Shown piece by piece: positions 8,341 through 52,329 of a stretch of DNA of 64,000 nt. Location: the sequence record PZ495249.1; one strand, written 5' to 3'. The notes beneath the pieces are model-generated. The model was not told where the DNA came from. It saw only the letters and a program-made list of their open reading frames with translations, and made no database searches. This DNA comes from a phage. Made by a program: the position numbers and the translations under genes. Numbering within the stretch: position 1 is the stretch's first letter; each line of letters starts with the position of its first letter.

Positions 8341-8625
8341 ATGTTTGAACAAAATCAAATCTTCCAACAAGGACTCGTTCAGATTATTCGCAATCTCAAG
8401 AATGCGGGTATTGAAGATATCACAACCGAGATCGTAGGATTACACAATGGTAACAAAGGTATGAAGTTCCGCTTCTATACCGAAGACCAATGGGTATCCA
8501 ATCCAGCTAATCGAGCAAACGAGGCGGTGAAGCTATTCGGTAAAACTTACAAGGGTGAGTTTAAGATGCCAGATCATATCGTTGCATATGATAAGGTGAA
8601 GTATTTTGTTGTTGAAGTAAAATAA
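8341..8625 (+). CDS. hypothetical protein
   Basis: Track ORF 8218..8625 trimmed to ATG at 8341 after GGAGGAAATC. Confidence 0.45.
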   Translation: MFEQNQIFQQGLVQIIRNLKNAGIEDITTEIVGLHNGNKGMKFRFYTEDQWVSNPANRANEAVKLFGKTYKGEFKMPDHIVAYDKVKYFVVEVK

Positions 8626-8634
8626 GGAGAAACT

Positions 8635-9519
8635 ATGTTTGCTAAAAATTTCAAATCTGTTCTGCCTCTGGCTGCTGGTGAAGGTTTATCTCTCTCTGCG
8701 CTGAATAGCATTACAGATCGTCCACTGGATTTCGTTATCGCAGAAGGACAGCAAGCCCACACCATTGGGCTGGTAAAGTTTGAGGACGACAACTCCTACG
8801 TGAAAGAGTTCTCTGGCCTCCAGATGATCAACGTTGGTCAGTCTGTGAAGAAAGTGAACAAGAAGAAAGTTAAACGTCTTCTGGCAGCAAAAATCAAAAC
8901 TATGGAAGAAGCTTTCCTGCTGGAAAATCCAGGTAAAGAGTTCTTCTTGGATAAAGAAAGTAAGAAAGCTGTAGAAGCGGATATCATTTTCTCCCTGCTC
9001 CCTGAGACAGAGGCAGATGATTTCTACAACTACGTAGTGGTTGATACGACTACCGATATTGTGTATGTTATCAATGGTAGCAAGAAAATCAGCGAAGAAA
9101 TCTCTATCTTCCTGCGTGATGTTCTGGGTAGCTTCCCTGTAATGGGCTTTGGTGTTCATGAAGAAGTAATCGTGAAAGGCTTCGGTGACATTCTGGAAAC
9201 TCACGAACATGAACGCCTGACTCTGGGTAACTACATCAAACTGGAAGATGATGAAGGTGTTGTAGTGTGGAGCAAAGAATCCCTGTACGAGTCTAAGGCT
9301 CTTGAACTGAAAGAAGATGGTAAGTCTGTTGTTGCTATCGGTTTGGAGTTTGACGGTGTAGTGAACTTTGTTGTTGATAAGGAGTTCCGCCTTAGTGGAG
9401 TGAAGTTCCCGAAATACTTCAACGATGAGGAAGGAAGTATCGAAGCGGCAGCACTGCTGTGCTTCAACGAGATTCGTGGTGTGCTTGCTGATCTGAAAAG
9501 CGCAACTTTCGATAAATAA
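8635..9519 (+). CDS. RdgC-like recombination-associated protein
   Basis: Track ORF; IIFSLLPETEADDFYNYVVVDTTTDIVYVINGS and VLGSFPV align with E. coli RdgC regions (recalled from memory). Confidence 0.5.
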   Translation: MFAKNFKSVLPLAAGEGLSLSALNSITDRPLDFVIAEGQQAHTIGLVKFEDDNSYVKEFSGLQMINVGQSVKKVNKKKVKRLLAAKIKTMEEAFLLENPGKEFFLDKESKKAVEADIIFSLLPETEADDFYNYVVVDTTTDIVYVINGSKKISEEISIFLRDVLGSFPVMGFGVHEEVIVKGFGDILETHEHERLTLGNYIKLEDDEGVVVWSKESLYESKALELKEDGKSVVAIGLEFDGVVNFVVDKEFRLSGVKFPKYFNDEEGSIEAAALLCFNEIRGVLADLKSATFDK

Positions 9520-24241: not shown

Positions 24242-24742
24242 ATGGCTAAAGTAGTAGATGAGTTTGATATGCTACGCCTTGACGAGGGACTAAAGCTCAC
24301 CGTCTATACAGATACCGAAGGGTATTGGACAGTGGGTATTGGTCATCTCTTAACGAAAGTCAAAGATAAAGCGGTTGCTATCGCTGAACTGGATAAGCTG
24401 GTAGGTCGTAAGACCAATGGTGTTATCACAGAAGACGAAGCACGTACAATCTTCAAGAAAGACGTTGAAAAGGCTATCAAGCAGGTTAAACAGAGTAAGA
24501 TTCTATCTCCGATTTACGATAAGGTGAGTCCTACTCGTAAAATGGCAATTGTCAATATGGTATTCCAAATGGGGATTGCCGGAGCAGAATCTTTCCAAAA
24601 TAGCTTGACATTAGTGAGCAATTCGTACTATACTCAGGCTGGTATCAATTTACGTAAAAGTAAGTGGTACAAACAAACGCCTAATCGTGCAGAGCGAGTT
24701 ATCAAGGTTCTTACATCTGGAACACTTGATGCTTATAACTAA
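24242..24742 (+). CDS. endolysin, T4-type lysozyme (GH24 muramidase)
   Basis: Track ORF 24173..24742 trimmed to ATG at 24242; MLRLDEGLKLTVYTDTEGYWTVGIGHLL and WYKQTPNRAERVI nearly colinear with T4 lysozyme (recalled). Confidence 0.85.
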   Translation: MAKVVDEFDMLRLDEGLKLTVYTDTEGYWTVGIGHLLTKVKDKAVAIAELDKLVGRKTNGVITEDEARTIFKKDVEKAIKQVKQSKILSPIYDKVSPTRKMAIVNMVFQMGIAGAESFQNSLTLVSNSYYTQAGINLRKSKWYKQTPNRAERVIKVLTSGTLDAYN

Positions 24743-24745
24743 CAG

Positions 24746-24765
24746 AGGGGCGTAAGCCCCTTATT
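24746..24765 (+). terminator. GC hairpin, weak terminator
   Basis: AGGGGCGTAAGCCCCT; identical core at 38425. Confidence 0.45.
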
Positions 24766-24779
24766 CAAGGAGTGCTACT

Positions 24780-25532
24780 ATGGGAAATAAACCAGCAAAG
24801 TCTCCACGTCAGAAGCTGGCTGCTAATGACCAGAGACAAAGCCGTTATGCGGCGAAAGCTGTGGGGAACGATGACTACCGTCTTGACGAATTCTATCCAA
24901 CCGAGGCTCAGGAAGAGATTGTGCATAGCATGGTCTGGAATGACCTTACGATTGTGAATGGACGTGCAGGTACTGGTAAGACAACAACCGCTCTGTGGAA
25001 AGCGTTACAAATGCTGAAAGCAGGTGATGTACGAAAACTGCTCTTCCTGAAAAACCCAACTGAGGTGGGTGACGATCAGATTGGTTTCTTATCTGGTGAC
25101 AAGTCAGAAAAACTGACTGCGCACTACGAGTCTACCAAACGAATTTTCCAGCAATTCATGACCGCAAACAAACTGGAAACAGATATTGCTAACGGTAAAA
25201 TCGAACTAAACATTCCTAACTACGCACTGGGCGCTACCTGGGATAACACAATCATCCTGATTGACGAATCTCAGTTAATGTCTCCCGATACCATCAAGCT
25301 CCTTCTGGAACGTACTGGTATCAACTCTCGTGTTGTCGTTATCGGTGACGTGAAACAAACTTATGCTATCAAACATCGTAAAAACGGACTCGCAGATCTT
25401 GTAGATCGTGTAGCTCCGGCTGATGAAGACGGCTATCACACACCTGTAACCGACTTTATCGGATACGTTGAACTGTCAAGCGATGAGAACCAGCGTTCAC
25501 GTCTGTCTCAGTTCATCACGGAAATTTATTAA
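24780..25532 (+). CDS. phoH: PhoH-like ATPase
   Basis: Track ORF; Walker A GRAGTGKTTTAL. Confidence 0.85.
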   Translation: MGNKPAKSPRQKLAANDQRQSRYAAKAVGNDDYRLDEFYPTEAQEEIVHSMVWNDLTIVNGRAGTGKTTTALWKALQMLKAGDVRKLLFLKNPTEVGDDQIGFLSGDKSEKLTAHYESTKRIFQQFMTANKLETDIANGKIELNIPNYALGATWDNTIILIDESQLMSPDTIKLLLERTGINSRVVVIGDVKQTYAIKHRKNGLADLVDRVAPADEDGYHTPVTDFIGYVELSSDENQRSRLSQFITEIY

Positions 25533-25569
25533 TTTAACAAGGCAGGGAAGCCACTTTTATGGAGGATAA

Positions 25570-26061
25570 ATGGCATTTGTTGAAATAGGTAGAAGCGGTA
25601 TTGACGAGTGTTACCAAGCGGGTTTAGTAAAGCCGAACGAGTTCCGGCAGATTTATGTAAACAAGATTGAACAAGAGATCGCTCTCTTACTTGAAAACCT
25701 AACACTTAAACAAAAGTGGGGAATGTTCAAATCTTGGTTAAAGAATGAGGATTGGATTTTATCCCATTACCAGGAACTTTCTGATAGTAAAGACGGACTG
25801 TTTGAGTGTATAATAGAGATAGCCGCCTCAAATCCACAACTTCTTCATATTGATGAAGAAGATTCCAAACTACTTTTCCTAAGCAGTATTTTCCACAAGA
25901 AATCCTTACTCGTTCGAGAGTGCAGTGATTTATTTAATCACCCGCTCACCCGTACCGAGAAGATTCTGGTGGACAAAGAAACGTTACGCGCAATTGACTA
26001 TCTACGAAAATACGTGAACGGTGGAAAAGCAGTTCTTAAAACATTGCAGGAGGAAGAATAA
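25570..26061 (+). CDS. hypothetical protein
   Basis: Track ORF. Confidence 0.5.
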   Translation: MAFVEIGRSGIDECYQAGLVKPNEFRQIYVNKIEQEIALLLENLTLKQKWGMFKSWLKNEDWILSHYQELSDSKDGLFECIIEIAASNPQLLHIDEEDSKLLFLSSIFHKKSLLVRECSDLFNHPLTRTEKILVDKETLRAIDYLRKYVNGGKAVLKTLQEEE

Positions 26062-26750
26062 TGACAACGATTATTGCAACAAAGACTAAGATTCTAAGCG
26101 ACGGTAAAACTACCGTAGGCAATCGTGTAGACGATTACGACTTTAAGAAAGTACGTAAGATTGGGGATTATCTGGTCGGTGGCGCTGGTCGTCTAACCTC
26201 CATCCTCACATTCTTCGCCTGGTTTGAGCAGAATCTGCAATGTCAAGCGGCACAAGAATCTATCCCAGGGTTGATGATTCAATCAGATCCTGACAAGGAC
26301 GACGAAGACTTCATTGCGTTAGTTGTCCATCCTGACGGTAAAATTTTCATCCACGAAGGTGCTGATCCTCGTCGAGCATTCCCAATCGAGCGTGAATACT
26401 ACGCTGTTGGTAGTGGTGCAGACTTCGCATTAGCGGCGCTTGATGCCGGAGCCACTCCAGAACAAGCAATGGAAGTTGCAAAACTCCGTGATGCTTTCTC
26501 GGGTGGTGAAACTTTCGTAGAAGAACGCGAAGAAATTGTTGACATTACTGATGAAGATCTGAGAAACTTCTCAAGAGAGCAGCTTCTGAATCTGCTTCTT
26601 ACTGGTTCTCCAGAAGGTGATGCAGCACAACAGTTGCTGGCTACGCCGGAAGAAGAACATCCTAAAGGTGATACTGGTGAAATGGGAGTTTCTTGTGGTA
26701 TTCCTGGTGTTGCAGGTGCTACTTTTACAACTCCTTCACTGGGCGCTTAA
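26061..26750 (+). CDS. HslV/ClpQ-like Ntn-hydrolase peptidase with C-terminal extension
   Basis: Track ORF; MTTIIATK...DG.TTVGN...KKVRKIG...GGAG and AVGSGADFALAA match HslV (recalled). Confidence 0.7.
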   Translation: MTTIIATKTKILSDGKTTVGNRVDDYDFKKVRKIGDYLVGGAGRLTSILTFFAWFEQNLQCQAAQESIPGLMIQSDPDKDDEDFIALVVHPDGKIFIHEGADPRRAFPIEREYYAVGSGADFALAALDAGATPEQAMEVAKLRDAFSGGETFVEEREEIVDITDEDLRNFSREQLLNLLLTGSPEGDAAQQLLATPEEEHPKGDTGEMGVSCGIPGVAGATFTTPSLGA

Positions 26751-26756
26751 TACTAT

Positions 26757-26775
26757 GCCCCTTCGGGGGCTTTTA
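26757..26775 (+). terminator. GC hairpin, weak terminator
   Basis: GCCCCTTCGGGGGCTTTT. Confidence 0.45.
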
Positions 26776-26785
26776 AGGAGGAGAT

Positions 26786-27226
26786 ATGTTAGAAATTCCA
26801 GCTTCATTCATGGATAAGAACGTCCATGCATACCAGCAAATCTGTAAGCGAGCAAAGAATACACTGGATGCTATTGTCAGCAAACGTTATGTCATTTCTG
26901 AAAAGAAATGGTTCCGTACTATTCACTACGAAGTGAACGTTTTCGGTGAATGCAAACACAGAACAGGATCTACCGAGAGAATTCTGGAATGGATGCTTGA
27001 AAACGACCATATTTCCTCTCAAGACTATCAACTGCTCAAGTTCTACGACATGTCCAACATGGTAGATATTGTCATCGACAATCTCCAGGAACGCCGTAAC
27101 GAGAGCGATAAGGTGTCTGTGAATATGGATGAAATGCAACTCCTGTATTACATTGGAACGTTCACAGAAGACCCCACTTTAACGAAAGAGGAACTTCTTT
27201 TTGGCGAACAAGTACGACCGACCTGA
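26786..27226 (+). CDS. hypothetical protein
   Basis: Track ORF with AAGGAGGAG RBS. Confidence 0.5.
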   Translation: MLEIPASFMDKNVHAYQQICKRAKNTLDAIVSKRYVISEKKWFRTIHYEVNVFGECKHRTGSTERILEWMLENDHISSQDYQLLKFYDMSNMVDIVIDNLQERRNESDKVSVNMDEMQLLYYIGTFTEDPTLTKEELLFGEQVRPT

Positions 27227-27710
27227 GTCGGATTATTACCCAACACCACAAAAGTGTATTGAAGCACTGTTCAGTGTTATTGATTTTAAAAATTTGAGAG
27301 AAGAGGGTTGGCACTTTGCCGAGCCATGCCGAGGGGAAGCATCTGCGATTTATCAGCACTTCCCCGAAGGTTCAGAATATTGCGAGTTAGAAGAGGGTAA
27401 AGATTACTTTGCCAGTGTATGGGAAACCAAACCGGACATTATAATCACAAACCCTCCATTCAAACTGGCATTAGAGTTCTTGCAAAAGAGCTTACAAGAA
27501 GCAGACGTATCTATCTACCTGTTACGTTTGGGATTTCTGGAATCTAAGAAACGTCGAGATTTCCATAAAGCCAACCCTCCAACCAACTTGATTATTCTCT
27601 CTGAGCGACCATCGTTTGTTGCGGGTGGCACAGACAAGACAGCGTATGCCTGGTACGTCTATGATCCAAAACAAAGGCTTGGGCTTACCCAACCTTTCTA
27701 TTTTGTATAA
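27201..27710 (+). CDS. phage-type DNA N6-adenine methyltransferase-like
   Basis: Track ORF (TTG start); SDYYPTP and NPPF motifs. Confidence 0.55.
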   Translation: MANKYDRPESDYYPTPQKCIEALFSVIDFKNLREEGWHFAEPCRGEASAIYQHFPEGSEYCELEEGKDYFASVWETKPDIIITNPPFKLALEFLQKSLQEADVSIYLLRLGFLESKKRRDFHKANPPTNLIILSERPSFVAGGTDKTAYAWYVYDPKQRLGLTQPFYFV

Positions 27711-27719
27711 GGATGATTA

Positions 27720-27923
27720 ATGGCCTACAACTACTATCTTGTGTATGTTCACGAGAACACGAAAGAAGACACTGGAACGAACGTCTACGCTGAGTCGGAA
27801 GACCATGCAAAGGCTATCGGGGCAGTTCTTCTTACACGCATGACAGGGGAAGAATTTACATCGGCTGATGTTTACGCAGAAGTAGATCCTGATATGCAAG
27901 AAGATGATATCACAACCACTTGA
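27720..27923 (+). CDS. hypothetical acidic protein
   Basis: Track ORF. Confidence 0.45.
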   Translation: MAYNYYLVYVHENTKEDTGTNVYAESEDHAKAIGAVLLTRMTGEEFTSADVYAEVDPDMQEDDITTT

Positions 27924-27948
27924 CAATAGTTTTGTGTTAGTGCATACT
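27920..27948 (+). promoter_or_regulatory. sigma70-like promoter
   Basis: TTGACA-17nt-CATACT upstream of recombinase gene. Confidence 0.5.
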
Positions 27949-27973
27949 CATTGAAACAGCATAGGAGGGTGTC

Positions 27974-28636
27974 ATGAAATTCGTACTTTACCATCGTCTT
28001 TCCAAAAAGAAACAGCAAGGCAACCAATACGGTATTGAATCACAGGAAGTTGATATTCAACGTTTCCTGGACTCGCAAGAGAACTATACCGTGATCGGGA
28101 CTTTCGCTGAATACTACTCTGGTAAAGGTGACTGGAAGCAACGTAGAGAACTGGTGAAAGCCGTGGAACTCTGCAAAGCAACTGGTGCAACACTTGTGGT
28201 TGCAAAGGTTGACCGTTTAGGTCGTAACACTGCCTCAGTTGCAACGCTTCTCGAAATGGTGAATGTTCGTATTGCTACGATGCCCTCCGCTGAGAATATG
28301 GTGATTAATATCCTCGCCGTTCTCGCAGAAGAAGAAGCACGAGCGATCTCTGATCGTGTGAGAAAAAGTTTGAAAGTTGCCAAAGAGAAAGGTATACTCC
28401 TTGGTGCTGCAAATGAAAAATACAATCGTACAGATTACTCTAAGAGAGAGGAATCAAAGCGCTCTATGGAATTTGCCATGAGCATGAAAGATTCCCTTGT
28501 TGCTTTCCGTTCAATGAACACACCGTTCATGACAATTGCAAAGCATCTTAACGAAAGCGGTAAAACTACTATCCGAGGCAGCAAGTTTGATGCGAAAGCT
28601 GTCCAGCGCTTATGTTCTAAGTTAGAAATCAACTGA
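27974..28636 (+). CDS. serine recombinase (resolvase/invertase family)
   Basis: Track ORF; YHRLSKKKQ...GIESQ catalytic-Ser region, VAKVDRLGRN, C-terminal HTH-like segment. Confidence 0.7.
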   Translation: MKFVLYHRLSKKKQQGNQYGIESQEVDIQRFLDSQENYTVIGTFAEYYSGKGDWKQRRELVKAVELCKATGATLVVAKVDRLGRNTASVATLLEMVNVRIATMPSAENMVINILAVLAEEEARAISDRVRKSLKVAKEKGILLGAANEKYNRTDYSKREESKRSMEFAMSMKDSLVAFRSMNTPFMTIAKHLNESGKTTIRGSKFDAKAVQRLCSKLEIN

Positions 28637-51162: not shown

Positions 51163-51368
51163 GTTTTCACCTCGAAAGTTATACCCCAAAGCCTTTCAAT
51201 ATCATAATCGGGAATAGCATCGCCATCTCCATCAATTATTACCAACCCGTAAGAAGATAGCCTATTGCTGTCCGGCTCGCACTTGAACAGTTCAAACGCC
51301 TGGTAAGTTTCCCCATCTTTGAAACACGCACAATTCGTGTTGGGCTTACATTTTGCAATCACTTTCAT
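51159..51368 (-). CDS. hypothetical Cys-containing protein
   Basis: Track ORF 51159..51419 trimmed to ATG with AGAGGAGG RBS. Confidence 0.45.
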   Translation of the reverse strand: MKVIAKCKPNTNCACFKDGETYQAFELFKCEPDSNRLSSYGLVIIDGDGDAIPDYDIERLWGITFEVKT

Positions 51369-52329
51369 TTGAAACCTCCTCTGTAAGGGTGTCCACACGT
51401 ACACCACCAAATCTTTCATAGATACTAACCACTTTATCGTAGTCTGTCAAGGCTACCGTTTCTGTCCATCCATCAGGCATGTCAAATTTGGATACAACAC
51501 AACACTGCAAAGTATCTTTACATGTTTTTTCTGCTGCTTTGCACAGTTTAGTGGTTTCAAACCTGTACAATCCAATACGTTCCATCTTAACTTTGTTGTT
51601 ATAATTTTGTTCTCTTATACGAAGATCACTATTTGTTGCTACCCCAAACTTAATAGCCATAACCACACCATTATCGCGTATGATATTGATATAACATTCA
51701 AATTGATTATGTCCTGCACACTCAGGGCAACCTGATCCGCGTAAAAGAGAACCCGTGGTTTTCACCTGTTCACCATGTACTGGACATATGTACTTAAACT
51801 TAGTAGTGTTCCCAATACGTTCAGGACTAATTTCTAACCACCCGTTAAAAATTAATCCTGTTTTTTCAAGTTCTTTTTCTATCCTGTACTGCCATTGCTC
51901 ATTGTTAAATCTGAAATTATGTGCGCACCTACACGGAACGGAACCTCTTGTCAAAGATTGTGTTGTGGATAAAAATACCCCAGAACAGTTACCGCTGCTC
52001 ACGTAGCCATCTACCGAACACTTAGGACAGAACACTTGCCATTGCGAGGCATGACCATCCAAATCATTATCATTAACTGGCGTGAAAACCGTCCCCTCTG
52101 TAAACTTACCTGTTTTGTAAAAATTTTCAATGTGCTCAGTAACGGTTAATGGCTTGGGTAATAAAGCTGATAGAGCCTCACTTGGACTATCTCCTCGGTG
52201 TAATCTTGCACGATATGATCCATTCTTGATACCCAACCAATCGCAAATTTGCGTCATGTTAAGTAAATTAACATCTGAACTCTCAAATACTTTACCATCC
52301 AGTGTTAGTTTTATCTCTAATTCCACCAC
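51346..52329 (-). CDS. hypothetical Cys-rich protein, possibly nuclease/Zn-finger-like
   Basis: Track ORF 327 aa; several CxxC/CPxC pairs. Confidence 0.5.
   Translation of the reverse strand: MVELEIKLTLDGKVFESSDVNLLNMTQICDWLGIKNGSYRARLHRGDSPSEALSALLPKPLTVTEHIENFYKTGKFTEGTVFTPVNDNDLDGHASQWQVFCPKCSVDGYVSSGNCSGVFLSTTQSLTRGSVPCRCAHNFRFNNEQWQYRIEKELEKTGLIFNGWLEISPERIGNTTKFKYICPVHGEQVKTTGSLLRGSGCPECAGHNQFECYINIIRDNGVVMAIKFGVATNSDLRIREQNYNNKVKMERIGLYRFETTKLCKAAEKTCKDTLQCCVVSKFDMPDGWTETVALTDYDKVVSIYERFGGVRVDTLTEEVSNESDCKM
51422..51450 (-). promoter_or_regulatory. sigma70-like promoter inside 3' end of upstream CDS
   Basis: Minus strand TTGACA-17nt-TAGTAT about 54 nt upstream of 51368 start. Confidence 0.45.

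Follow-up and report, generated by a model that had tools for sequence, protein, structure and literature searches.

How could a proteasome-like peptidase encoded by a virus work without an unfoldase, and what would be its role? The question is raised by a gene in a 64,000-nucleotide stretch of phage DNA (sequence record PZ495249.1), which as a whole we refer to as the window. Positions 26061-26750 on the plus strand hold a complete gene for a protein of 229 amino acids plus stop, here called the peptidase, as judged from the open reading frame (ORF) listing, PHROG 1040, Pfam PF00227 and AlphaFold/Foldseek. We are highly confident that the product is an N-terminal nucleophile (Ntn) hydrolase of the proteasome-beta/HslV fold with an intact active site, that it is not HslV, and that proteins of its kind had already been annotated. 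Tentatively, in what is the most likely reading but one held at about even odds, we hypothesize that it is an accessory, self-assembling and unfoldase-independent Ntn peptidase acting on peptides or on unfolded or disordered proteins in the metabolic phase of infection.

Fold and active site of the peptidase

PHROG 1040, named 'peptidase HslV family', matches residues 1-194 of the peptidase (E=9.4e-55, 187 bits). The Pfam Proteasome model PF00227 gives 23.4 bits, which passes the gathering cut-off of 22.4 by a small margin, and a precomputed PF00227 match is present in 28 of the first 40 homologues listed. The best sequence matches in the PDB are all HslV (E=2e-4 to 1e-3); none of the PDB matches extends past residue 182, and among those that go beyond about residue 141 none is significant. 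Aligned to E. coli HslV with hhalign, the family profile covers 144 columns, corresponding to query residues 1-148, at 97.4% probability (E=1.4e-11), and Thr2 falls on Thr1 of HslV. A first, sequence-only reading of this DNA had taken the protein for an HslV-like Ntn hydrolase with its threonine at position 2, and on this point the profile comparison agrees with it.

The AlphaFold model has a mean predicted local distance difference test score (pLDDT) of 82, with a core above 90, and shows the beta-sandwich Ntn fold of the proteasome together with flanking helices. When the model was compared to the PDB using Foldseek, HslV came first (6kui, E=3e-10), with BPH and the archaeal and eukaryotic beta subunits in a similar range, up to about 1e-9. 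In total 594 chains were found at E<=0.001, and the probability was 1.00 for HslV, BPH and the 20S beta subunit. The same comparison with viral models gave 46 phage proteins at E<=0.001, the best structural fits being Caulobacter phage proteins of 131-146 amino acids.

To delimit the family we ran a profile search of 1.84 billion representatives, which returned 58 clusters at E<=1e-30, defined here as the subfamily, 2,341 at E<=1e-10 and 8,749 at E<=0.001; many of the 8,749 sit on phage contigs. Conservation was read from alignments of 24 and 61 homologues, and residues were counted over 118 full-length subfamily members. The catalytic core, residues 1-157 (26061-26531, plus strand), is delimited by a pLDDT mostly above 90, by conservation and by the hhalign alignment, and includes Asp14, Lys30, a GGAG motif at 40-43, a GSG motif at 117-119 and Asp144. 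Thr2 (codon 26064-26066, plus strand), the predicted nucleophile after removal of Met1 given its conservation and its alignment to HslV Thr1, is kept in 113 of the 118 members, the other five being alignment gaps. Asp14 is likewise kept in 113, Trp54 in 114, Lys30 and Asp144 in 116 each, Gly43 and Ser118 in 117 each, and Gly117 and Gly119 in all 118. Thr2, Asp14, Lys30, Gly43 and Ser118 match the catalytic set which in HslV numbering consists of the N-terminal Thr/Ser, Asp17, Lys33, the oxyanion Gly and the Ser129 equivalent. This conservation of the active site extends over the 118 members and a further 75 more distant relatives. Because the active-site residues are near-invariant, the peptidase is under purifying selection to stay active.

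The protein starts with MTTIIATK, the counterpart in E. coli HslV being (V)TTIV. Since its ATG is the first possible start after the in-frame stop, as read from the sequence, the protein can have no N-terminal propeptide. A Shine-Dalgarno sequence, AGGAGG (26048-26053, plus strand), is found 7 nucleotides 5' of this ATG. Searched with the core profile, the window and each of 89 loci have a single proteasome-like gene, apart from one distant contig with two; with that exception, no second paralogue that could make up an alpha/beta-like pair was found.

Distribution and related proteasome homologues

The family is not new, being already annotated in more than 100 genomes of phi92/phAPEC8-type phages. 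Many records carry the labels 'peptidase HslV family', 'HslV family peptidase', 'putative 20S proteasome' or 'putative proteasome component'. We found homologues in 167 phage records, mostly phi92/phAPEC8-type Stephanstirmvirinae at 73-79% identity, and in phages of Klebsiella, Vibrio, Aeromonas and Shewanella at 34-46%. The best GenBank phage match is 79% identical, and metagenomic viral contigs carry copies that are 99% identical. At the DNA level, positions 25000-28000 of the window have matches at 72% identity in five E. coli phages of the phiWec179 group and in no others. The homologue in phi92 is gp058. Across gp058, phAPEC8 and PHROG 1040 the proteins have the same core, a conserved helical element and a variable acidic tail, and in phi92 and phAPEC8 the gene has the same neighbours as in the window (lysozyme, PhoH, a 163-residue ORF, the peptidase, a 146-residue ORF and a methyltransferase); the only differences are sequence divergence and another hypervariable tail. 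Two records assigned to other hosts, MG065656.1 (Campylobacter phage C3) at 75.2% and OP562383.1 (Acinetobacter phage vB_AbaM_ABPW7) at 73.1%, are as similar to the peptidase as those of the E. coli phi92/phAPEC8-type phages. Phage C3 and E. coli phage W22 have AAA ATPases that are 100% identical, and the host labels of both records look doubtful.

Among recently described proteasome homologues, PPH and RPC lack helix H2 and none of the new families has a propeptide (Fuchs, Alva and Lupas 2021, PMC8665760). The peptidase resembles these two, which are group I proteasome-like proteins without propeptide, without H2 and without an AAA+ partner, PPH being phage-borne and RPC having a C-terminal extension. 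Like PPH, the peptidase has neither H2 nor propeptide and is encoded by tailed phages, but PPH has about 140 residues (PMC8665760) compared to 229 for the peptidase, composed of a 157-residue core and 72 further residues. With RPC it has in common a PPH-related core followed by a C-terminal region (158-229) matching no known structure; RPC, however, is listed for Proteobacteria only, with no phage entry in Table 1 of the same study (PMC8665760), whereas the subfamily resides on phage genomes of about 150 kb. Compared in this way by traits, the peptidase belongs to a phage-specific branch, PHROG 1040, that resembles PPH and RPC.

BPH of Thiobacillus denitrificans (PDB 5ovs) is similar in having no known unfoldase, an acidic loop at the pore position and a Foldseek E-value of 3e-9, in the range of HslV. 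It differs in keeping both apical helices and in having no C-terminal extension, and the TM-scores of the peptidase are 0.51-0.55 to BPH compared to 0.63-0.70 to HslV. BPH, whose acidic pore loop is long, appears to be unfoldase-independent (Fuchs et al. 2021, PMC8665760).

Divergence from HslV

The sequence-only reading had called the protein an orphan HslV-like peptidase. With HslV (ClpQ) the peptidase shares the fold, the Thr-Thr-Ile start, the Asp, the Lys, the G-x-A-G and G-S-G motifs and about 30% identity over the 144 columns. Nevertheless its scores are far below the cut-offs of the curated HslV equivalog models (29.9 bits versus 137 for NF003964 and 27.9 versus 157.75 for TIGR03692), it has no hslU gene beside it, H2 and most residues of the HslU pocket are missing, the first beta-hairpin is 4 residues shorter and a C-terminal extension has been added. 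Scored against the subfamily core profile, relatives of at most 160 residues (uncharacterised proteins of about 140 amino acids) reach a median of 78 bits and E. coli HslV 48 bits; nearly all of the small relatives begin with MTTI or MTTV. Judged from sequence, the peptidase is not an HslV orthologue. Of the orphan designation, the HslV-like fold and the missing HslU stand, but not the notion of an HslV orthologue that has no partner.

In the apical region of the model, one long helix (45-67) is followed by no other helix before the strand at 85-89, as assigned by DSSP. Residues 68-84 (IPGLMIQSDPDKDDEDF; 26262-26312, plus strand) are predicted from the DSSP assignment of the monomer model to form an acidic loop in place of the HslV helix H2 and pore loop, with a block-mean pLDDT of about 72-89. 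The position of Asp81 is Asp or Glu in 106 of the 118 members and that of Glu82 in 109. HslV Lys28, which we take to bind the C-terminal carboxylate of HslU, aligns to Asp25. The pocket of HslV that accepts the HslU tail consists of Phe54 and Phe57 in helix 1, Ala79 and Lys80 in helix 2, and Gln114 (PMC6429459). In the order Phe54, Phe57, Ala79, Lys80 and Gln114, these align to Leu49, Phe52, Asp76, Pro77 and Pro108, with only Phe57 kept. Because most pocket residues are changed and the helix with Ala79 and Lys80 is missing, canonical docking of host HslU is unlikely.

Two segments that look like an HslU tail were considered and treated as coincidence. DEDLRNF (residues 172-178, 26574-26594) resembles the HslU tail DEDLSRFIL and would mimic it in cis, but it is not conserved in the family and is located 50 residues from the C-terminus. 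The C-terminal LSQFITEIY of the neighbouring PhoH protein (25497-25529), similar to LSRFIL of HslU, is inside the conserved PhoH domain, the Pfam match reaching the final residue.

The C-terminal extension

The acidic C-terminal region of about 70 residues that had been noticed in the sequence corresponds to residues 158-229, that is 72 amino acids with 13 Asp+Glu compared to 3 Lys+Arg and a pI of about 4, for which structure prediction gives short helices followed by a disordered tail. The conserved part, residues 158-197 (26532-26651, plus strand), defined by the model, the motif count and the alignment, is an acidic linker with two or three short helices, placed at 164-169, 172-181 and 188-193 in the AlphaFold model. 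The block-mean pLDDT is about 79-86 over residues 151-190 and falls to about 59 over 191-200. A strict regular expression for the motif T-x-E-...-[ST]-[KR]-E-[EQ]-L-[LI] matches 89 of the 118 subfamily members compared to 3 of 59 more distant relatives. The length of the region following the core ranges from 12 to 222 amino acids in the 118 members, with a median of 63, while the median is 8 in the more distant relatives. Pooled over the 118 tails, Asp+Glu amount to 24.5% and Lys+Arg to 8.6%. On these counts the acidic extension is a hallmark of the subfamily.

Residues 198-229 (26652-26747, plus strand) form a hypervariable tail, predicted to be disordered (pLDDT below 50) and not alignable across the family: past about residue 197 no alignment is found, and some members carry a further domain. 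In a genome 97.6% identical overall, the last ~60 nucleotides of the gene are unrelated (window 26680-26745 compared to 8620-8675 of locus L007), with no difference in the stop codon, the hairpin that follows it or the next gene. The end of the tail is a very local replacement hotspot.

Genomic neighbourhood

The genes around the peptidase are, in order, glutaredoxin, lysozyme, a PhoH-like ATPase, the 163-residue ORF, the peptidase, the 146-residue ORF, a DNA methyltransferase, a resolvase and a Ser/Thr phosphatase-type protein; the wider setting is one of ribonucleotide reductase (RNR), glutaredoxin, lysozyme, PhoH and methyltransferase genes. The PhoH-like P-loop ATPase (24780-25532, plus strand; Pfam PhoH, E=3e-37) precedes the peptidase gene on the same strand in each of the 23 subfamily loci, including those of Vibrio, Aeromonas, Klebsiella and Shewanella phages with differing flanking genes. 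The linkage holds down to 34-37% identity of the peptidase, and in Shewanella phage 1/4 PhoH directly adjoins it. For more distant viral homologues, none of 63 loci has PhoH within 4-8 kb. The order RNR, lysozyme, PhoH, peptidase is common to the 23 loci, and the linkage can therefore be accounted for by inherited collinearity just as well as by function.

The 163-residue ORF (phrog_14834; 25570-26061, plus strand) has a PHROG match, is present in 20 of the 23 subfamily loci and overlaps the start of the peptidase gene. Its TAA stop (26059-26061) and the peptidase ATG form TAATG, an overlap that suggests translational coupling, and the phi92 annotation has the equivalent arrangement with an ATGA overlap. 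The model of its product is confident and all-helical (pLDDT 92, predicted TM-score 0.83), with no PDB fold match at E<=0.001 and no Pfam match, and may represent a new fold. In phages of Vibrio, Aeromonas and Shewanella, no homologue was detectable upstream of the peptidase. With neither a fold nor a Pfam match and with this restricted conservation, we rejected the ORF as a recognisable adaptor, inhibitor or cap. We also looked for components of known defence systems; PADLOC gave no match for the peptidase or the 146-residue ORF, and PhoH had only generic helicase-type P-loop matches.

The best sigma-70-like promoter match of the region, TTGACA-18-TATACT (24605-24634, plus strand; 11/12), comes from a consensus scan and is about 145 nucleotides upstream of PhoH, a possible start of a transcript of PhoH, the 163-residue ORF and the peptidase. 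The total number of promoter-like matches in the region is no higher than the shuffled expectation. Between the lysozyme and PhoH genes there is a GC hairpin without T-run, GAGGGGC-GUAA-GCCCCUU (24745-24762, plus strand; -13.9 kcal/mol, z=-1.96). Another, GCCCC-UUCG-GGGGC followed by UUUU (26757-26774, plus strand), begins 6 nucleotides 3' of the peptidase stop and is a possible terminator or stabiliser of the mRNA end. Its centroid fold has -10.8 kcal/mol, which is not significant compared to shuffles (z=-0.59), and it is under the T-run threshold of the terminator scan, but it is unchanged in the closest relative although the adjoining end of the peptidase gene has diverged. An operon defined by promoter and terminators was rejected, the signals being consensus-level and not significant against shuffles.

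A natural deletion in phage VEcB

A deletion in phage VEcB (MT932211.1; locus L090, 2165-2968, compare window 24780-26750) bears on whether the peptidase is needed. VEcB has a 267-residue fusion in which PhoH residues 1 to about 115 are in frame with the peptidase from about residue 62. Compared to phi92, a segment of about 1.13 kb has been lost exactly between two copies of a 9-bp direct repeat, AGCAGCACA, with flanks that are 98-99% identical. The exact repeat ends and the near-identical flanks indicate a genuine microhomology-mediated deletion and not an assembly error. The deletion removes the C-terminal half of PhoH, the whole intervening ORF and the catalytic half of the peptidase including Thr, Asp and Lys. 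As VEcB is a viable isolate that has been deposited, the block of PhoH, 163-residue ORF and peptidase appears to be dispensable for growth on its laboratory host.

Candidate partners and alternative functions

As had been noticed from the sequence, no HslU-like gene is nearby: when the 64-kb window is searched by tblastn, E. coli HslV hits nothing but the peptidase ORF (E=0.015), and E. coli HslU reaches E=1.1 at best. A Walker A motif is present in only three ORFs of the window, namely PhoH, an exonuclease-family protein and a 135-residue ORF. The complete genome of the relative W22 has no Clp, Lon or HslU unfoldase, and an HslU/ClpX-like match is found in at most 4 Escherichia phage records compared to 107 with the peptidase. 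HslU/ClpX-like ATPases are found mainly in jumbo phages (the Erwinia Ea35-70 group, NC_023557.1 85889-87433; Prevotella Lak; Pseudomonas PA5oct); phage-encoded unfoldases therefore exist, but outside the lineage carrying the peptidase. None of the new proteasome homologues has a co-occurring AAA+ partner (Fuchs et al. 2021, PMC8665760), and since no such partner has ever been found for phage-borne proteasome-like families, being an orphan is the normal state of the family.

One explanation for a missing ATPase would be that the phage peptidase docks on host HslU (ClpY) to form a hybrid ATP-dependent protease that redirects the unfolding activity of the host. HslV is the top PDB match both by sequence and by fold, its N-terminus and catalytic residues line up with those of the peptidase, the pocket Phe57 is retained as Phe52 with a conservative change of Phe54 to Leu49, and hslU is encoded by the E. 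coli hosts. Nevertheless we consider this improbable, as the H2 residues Ala79 and Lys80 have given way to the acidic loop in the model, Gln114 aligns to a proline, the HslV equivalog cut-offs are missed by more than 100 bits, the nearest relatives are small phage proteins rather than HslV, and the family is also found in Vibrio, Aeromonas and Shewanella phages with an apical region that has strongly drifted in sequence. Recruitment of host HslU, which the sequence-only reading had offered as an option, is thus disfavoured by the modelled apical region. A second ATPase to consider is the classical AAA-domain protein of phrog_2376, called 'FtsH-like' in one record, which is encoded about 35 kb from the peptidase in relatives. 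The W22 protein, W22000222, passes the Pfam AAA cut-off (PF00004, 38.9 bits versus 21.2), and its homologues, like those of the peptidase, are present in 107 records of Escherichia phages. The two genes are unlinked, however, and the 64-kb window contains the CapR/T5orf172 gene that adjoins the ATPase gene in W22 but not the ATPase itself. It is also widespread in phages of Enterococcus, Bacillus, Staphylococcus and Lactococcus, four genera missing from the host tally of the peptidase, while Vibrio, with 12 peptidase-bearing records, is outside the ten commonest organisms with the ATPase; the PHROG neighbours of phrog_2376 are clamp-loader and DnaC-like proteins. A partnership with this ATPase is very unlikely. 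PhoH, the 163-residue ORF and the peptidase may be one module in which PhoH, instead of an AAA+ protein, supplies ATP-dependent handling of substrates, possibly on ribonucleoproteins. In favour are the invariant upstream position of PhoH on the same strand while intervening and downstream genes vary, the overlap of the peptidase start with the preceding stop, the promoter-like site and hairpins that bracket the three genes, and the single VEcB deletion that hits all three. But the 23 loci represent one collinear phage lineage in which adjacency may be inherited, the more distant loci have no PhoH nearby, the 163-residue ORF is not conserved in the Vibrio, Aeromonas and Shewanella members, the promoter and terminator signals do not go beyond consensus level, and PhoH ATPases are RNA helicases of the SF1-like type rather than protein unfoldases (PMC7824862). 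We regard such a module as improbable, and give still less weight to its stronger form, a new ATP-dependent machine in which a PhoH ring would replace the AAA+ unfoldase and feed or position substrates, possibly ribonucleoproteins, for the peptidase, with the acidic extension as docking site. The adjacency in 23 of 23 loci, the start/stop overlap and the joint loss in VEcB on which this machine is built are all equally explained by inherited gene order.

Other readings concern the chemistry or the target rather than the partner. The peptidase might be an Ntn hydrolase with non-proteolytic or highly specific chemistry, such as a connectase-like transpeptidase/ligase or an amidase directed at a single defined target of host or phage. 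The proteasome-like family includes the ligase connectase and the Ntn clan has many non-protease amidohydrolases (PMC8665760). A defined binding surface is suggested by Trp54 and Asp144, both strictly conserved, and by the conserved helical element after the core. The missing unfoldase would fit an enzyme that does not need processive degradation. On the other hand the model has no connectase-type insertion between strands S3 and S4, the closest solved folds (HslV, BPH and 20S beta) are bona fide proteases and no candidate target is known, which together make this reading unlikely. Finally the peptidase could be the head-maturation (prohead) protease of this phage group: no W22 gene is annotated as head protease, and on about 24 distant viral contigs a proteasome-like gene comes right after weak terminase and portal matches. 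This we reject as extremely unlikely. In this lineage the peptidase gene is part of the nucleotide-metabolism region, and in W22 about 36 kb separate it from the head genes; the W22 gene following the portal matches Peptidase_S78_2 (XkdF) and head-maturation-protease PHROGs; VEcB is viable without the catalytic half; and the paper on the phi92 virion structure mentions neither the peptidase gene nor any protease.

A proposed mode of action

We return to the reading of the peptidase as an accessory enzyme that works without unfoldase. Host methionine aminopeptidase, given its known specificity, would remove Met1 and expose Thr2 as nucleophile, assisted by Asp14, Lys30, the Gly43 backbone, Ser118 and Asp144. 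As the gene is single-copy, the enzyme would most likely assemble into a homo-oligomeric ring or double ring, and this ring may work without a dedicated AAA+ unfoldase, cleaving peptides or unfolded or disordered proteins in the early-to-middle, nucleotide-metabolism phase of infection. Similar to the acidic pore loop of BPH, the acidic loop in place of H2 could line the entrance or guard it, and the C-terminal extension would project from the outer surface, where it may recruit substrates or partners or act in gating. The gene would be accessory and not essential.

Several observations speak against this proposal. Isolated HslV is nearly inactive without HslU, and for this reason ATP-independent activity of the peptidase cannot be assumed. 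A non-canonical partner is still conceivable, given the constant PhoH neighbour and the AAA ATPase that relatives encode elsewhere. The dispensability seen in VEcB implies a function that is conditional or redundant, which weakens any claim of a central role. Our literature search found no functional data on phage proteasome homologues, phi92 gp058 or Phapecoctavirus HslV, and even the name peptidase should be taken with caution because proteasome-fold enzymes can be ligases, as in the case of connectase.

Taken alone, the finding extends by one diverged member a family that is annotated in more than 100 phage genomes and was described bioinformatically in 2021. The wider question is the role of virus-encoded proteasome homologues and how they work without an unfoldase, for which the subfamily is a convenient entry point: it includes phages that infect E. 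coli K-12 (phi92 and BASEL phages), a natural deletion mutant, VEcB, and a constant PhoH neighbour. It is conceivable that host factors such as defence or nucleoid proteins are substrates of the peptidase and are degraded, in which case it would represent a new class of phage counter-measure. Alternatively, if it needs PhoH, it would represent a new protease architecture.

Other genes in related phages

The W22 gene directly after the portal, W22000118 (locus L088, 9489-9980), is labelled 'DNA methyltransferase' but scores 44 bits versus a threshold of 24 for Peptidase_S78_2 (XkdF). From this match and those to head-maturation-protease PHROGs, it is probably the prohead protease of phi92-type phages. 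Its best PHROG match, phrog_1530, bears the same doubtful 'methyltransferase' label.

The distant viral proteasome-like genes near weak head-gene matches encode proteins of about 180 residues and are found on about 24 IMG/VR contigs (for example L070 1533-3906, L077 6018-7051, L033 6190-12118 and L038 753-4947). There, one strand carries a weak terminase, a weak portal, the proteasome-like gene, an ORF of about 150 residues and one of about 1600 residues, which puts the proteasome-like gene in the usual slot of a prohead protease, with terminase and portal Pfam matches that are below threshold. A head protease of proteasome fold would be unusual.

At another distant viral locus (L041, 2856-3380) and about 16 similar ones, an Hsp20/alpha-crystallin gene is found directly 3' of the proteasome-like gene, which hints at protein quality control. 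In the window, a CapR-homology/T5orf172 (endonuclease-family) gene at 51346-52329 on the minus strand is 43% identical to W22000223, whose upstream neighbour in W22 is the AAA ATPase gene W22000222, without counterpart anywhere in the window.

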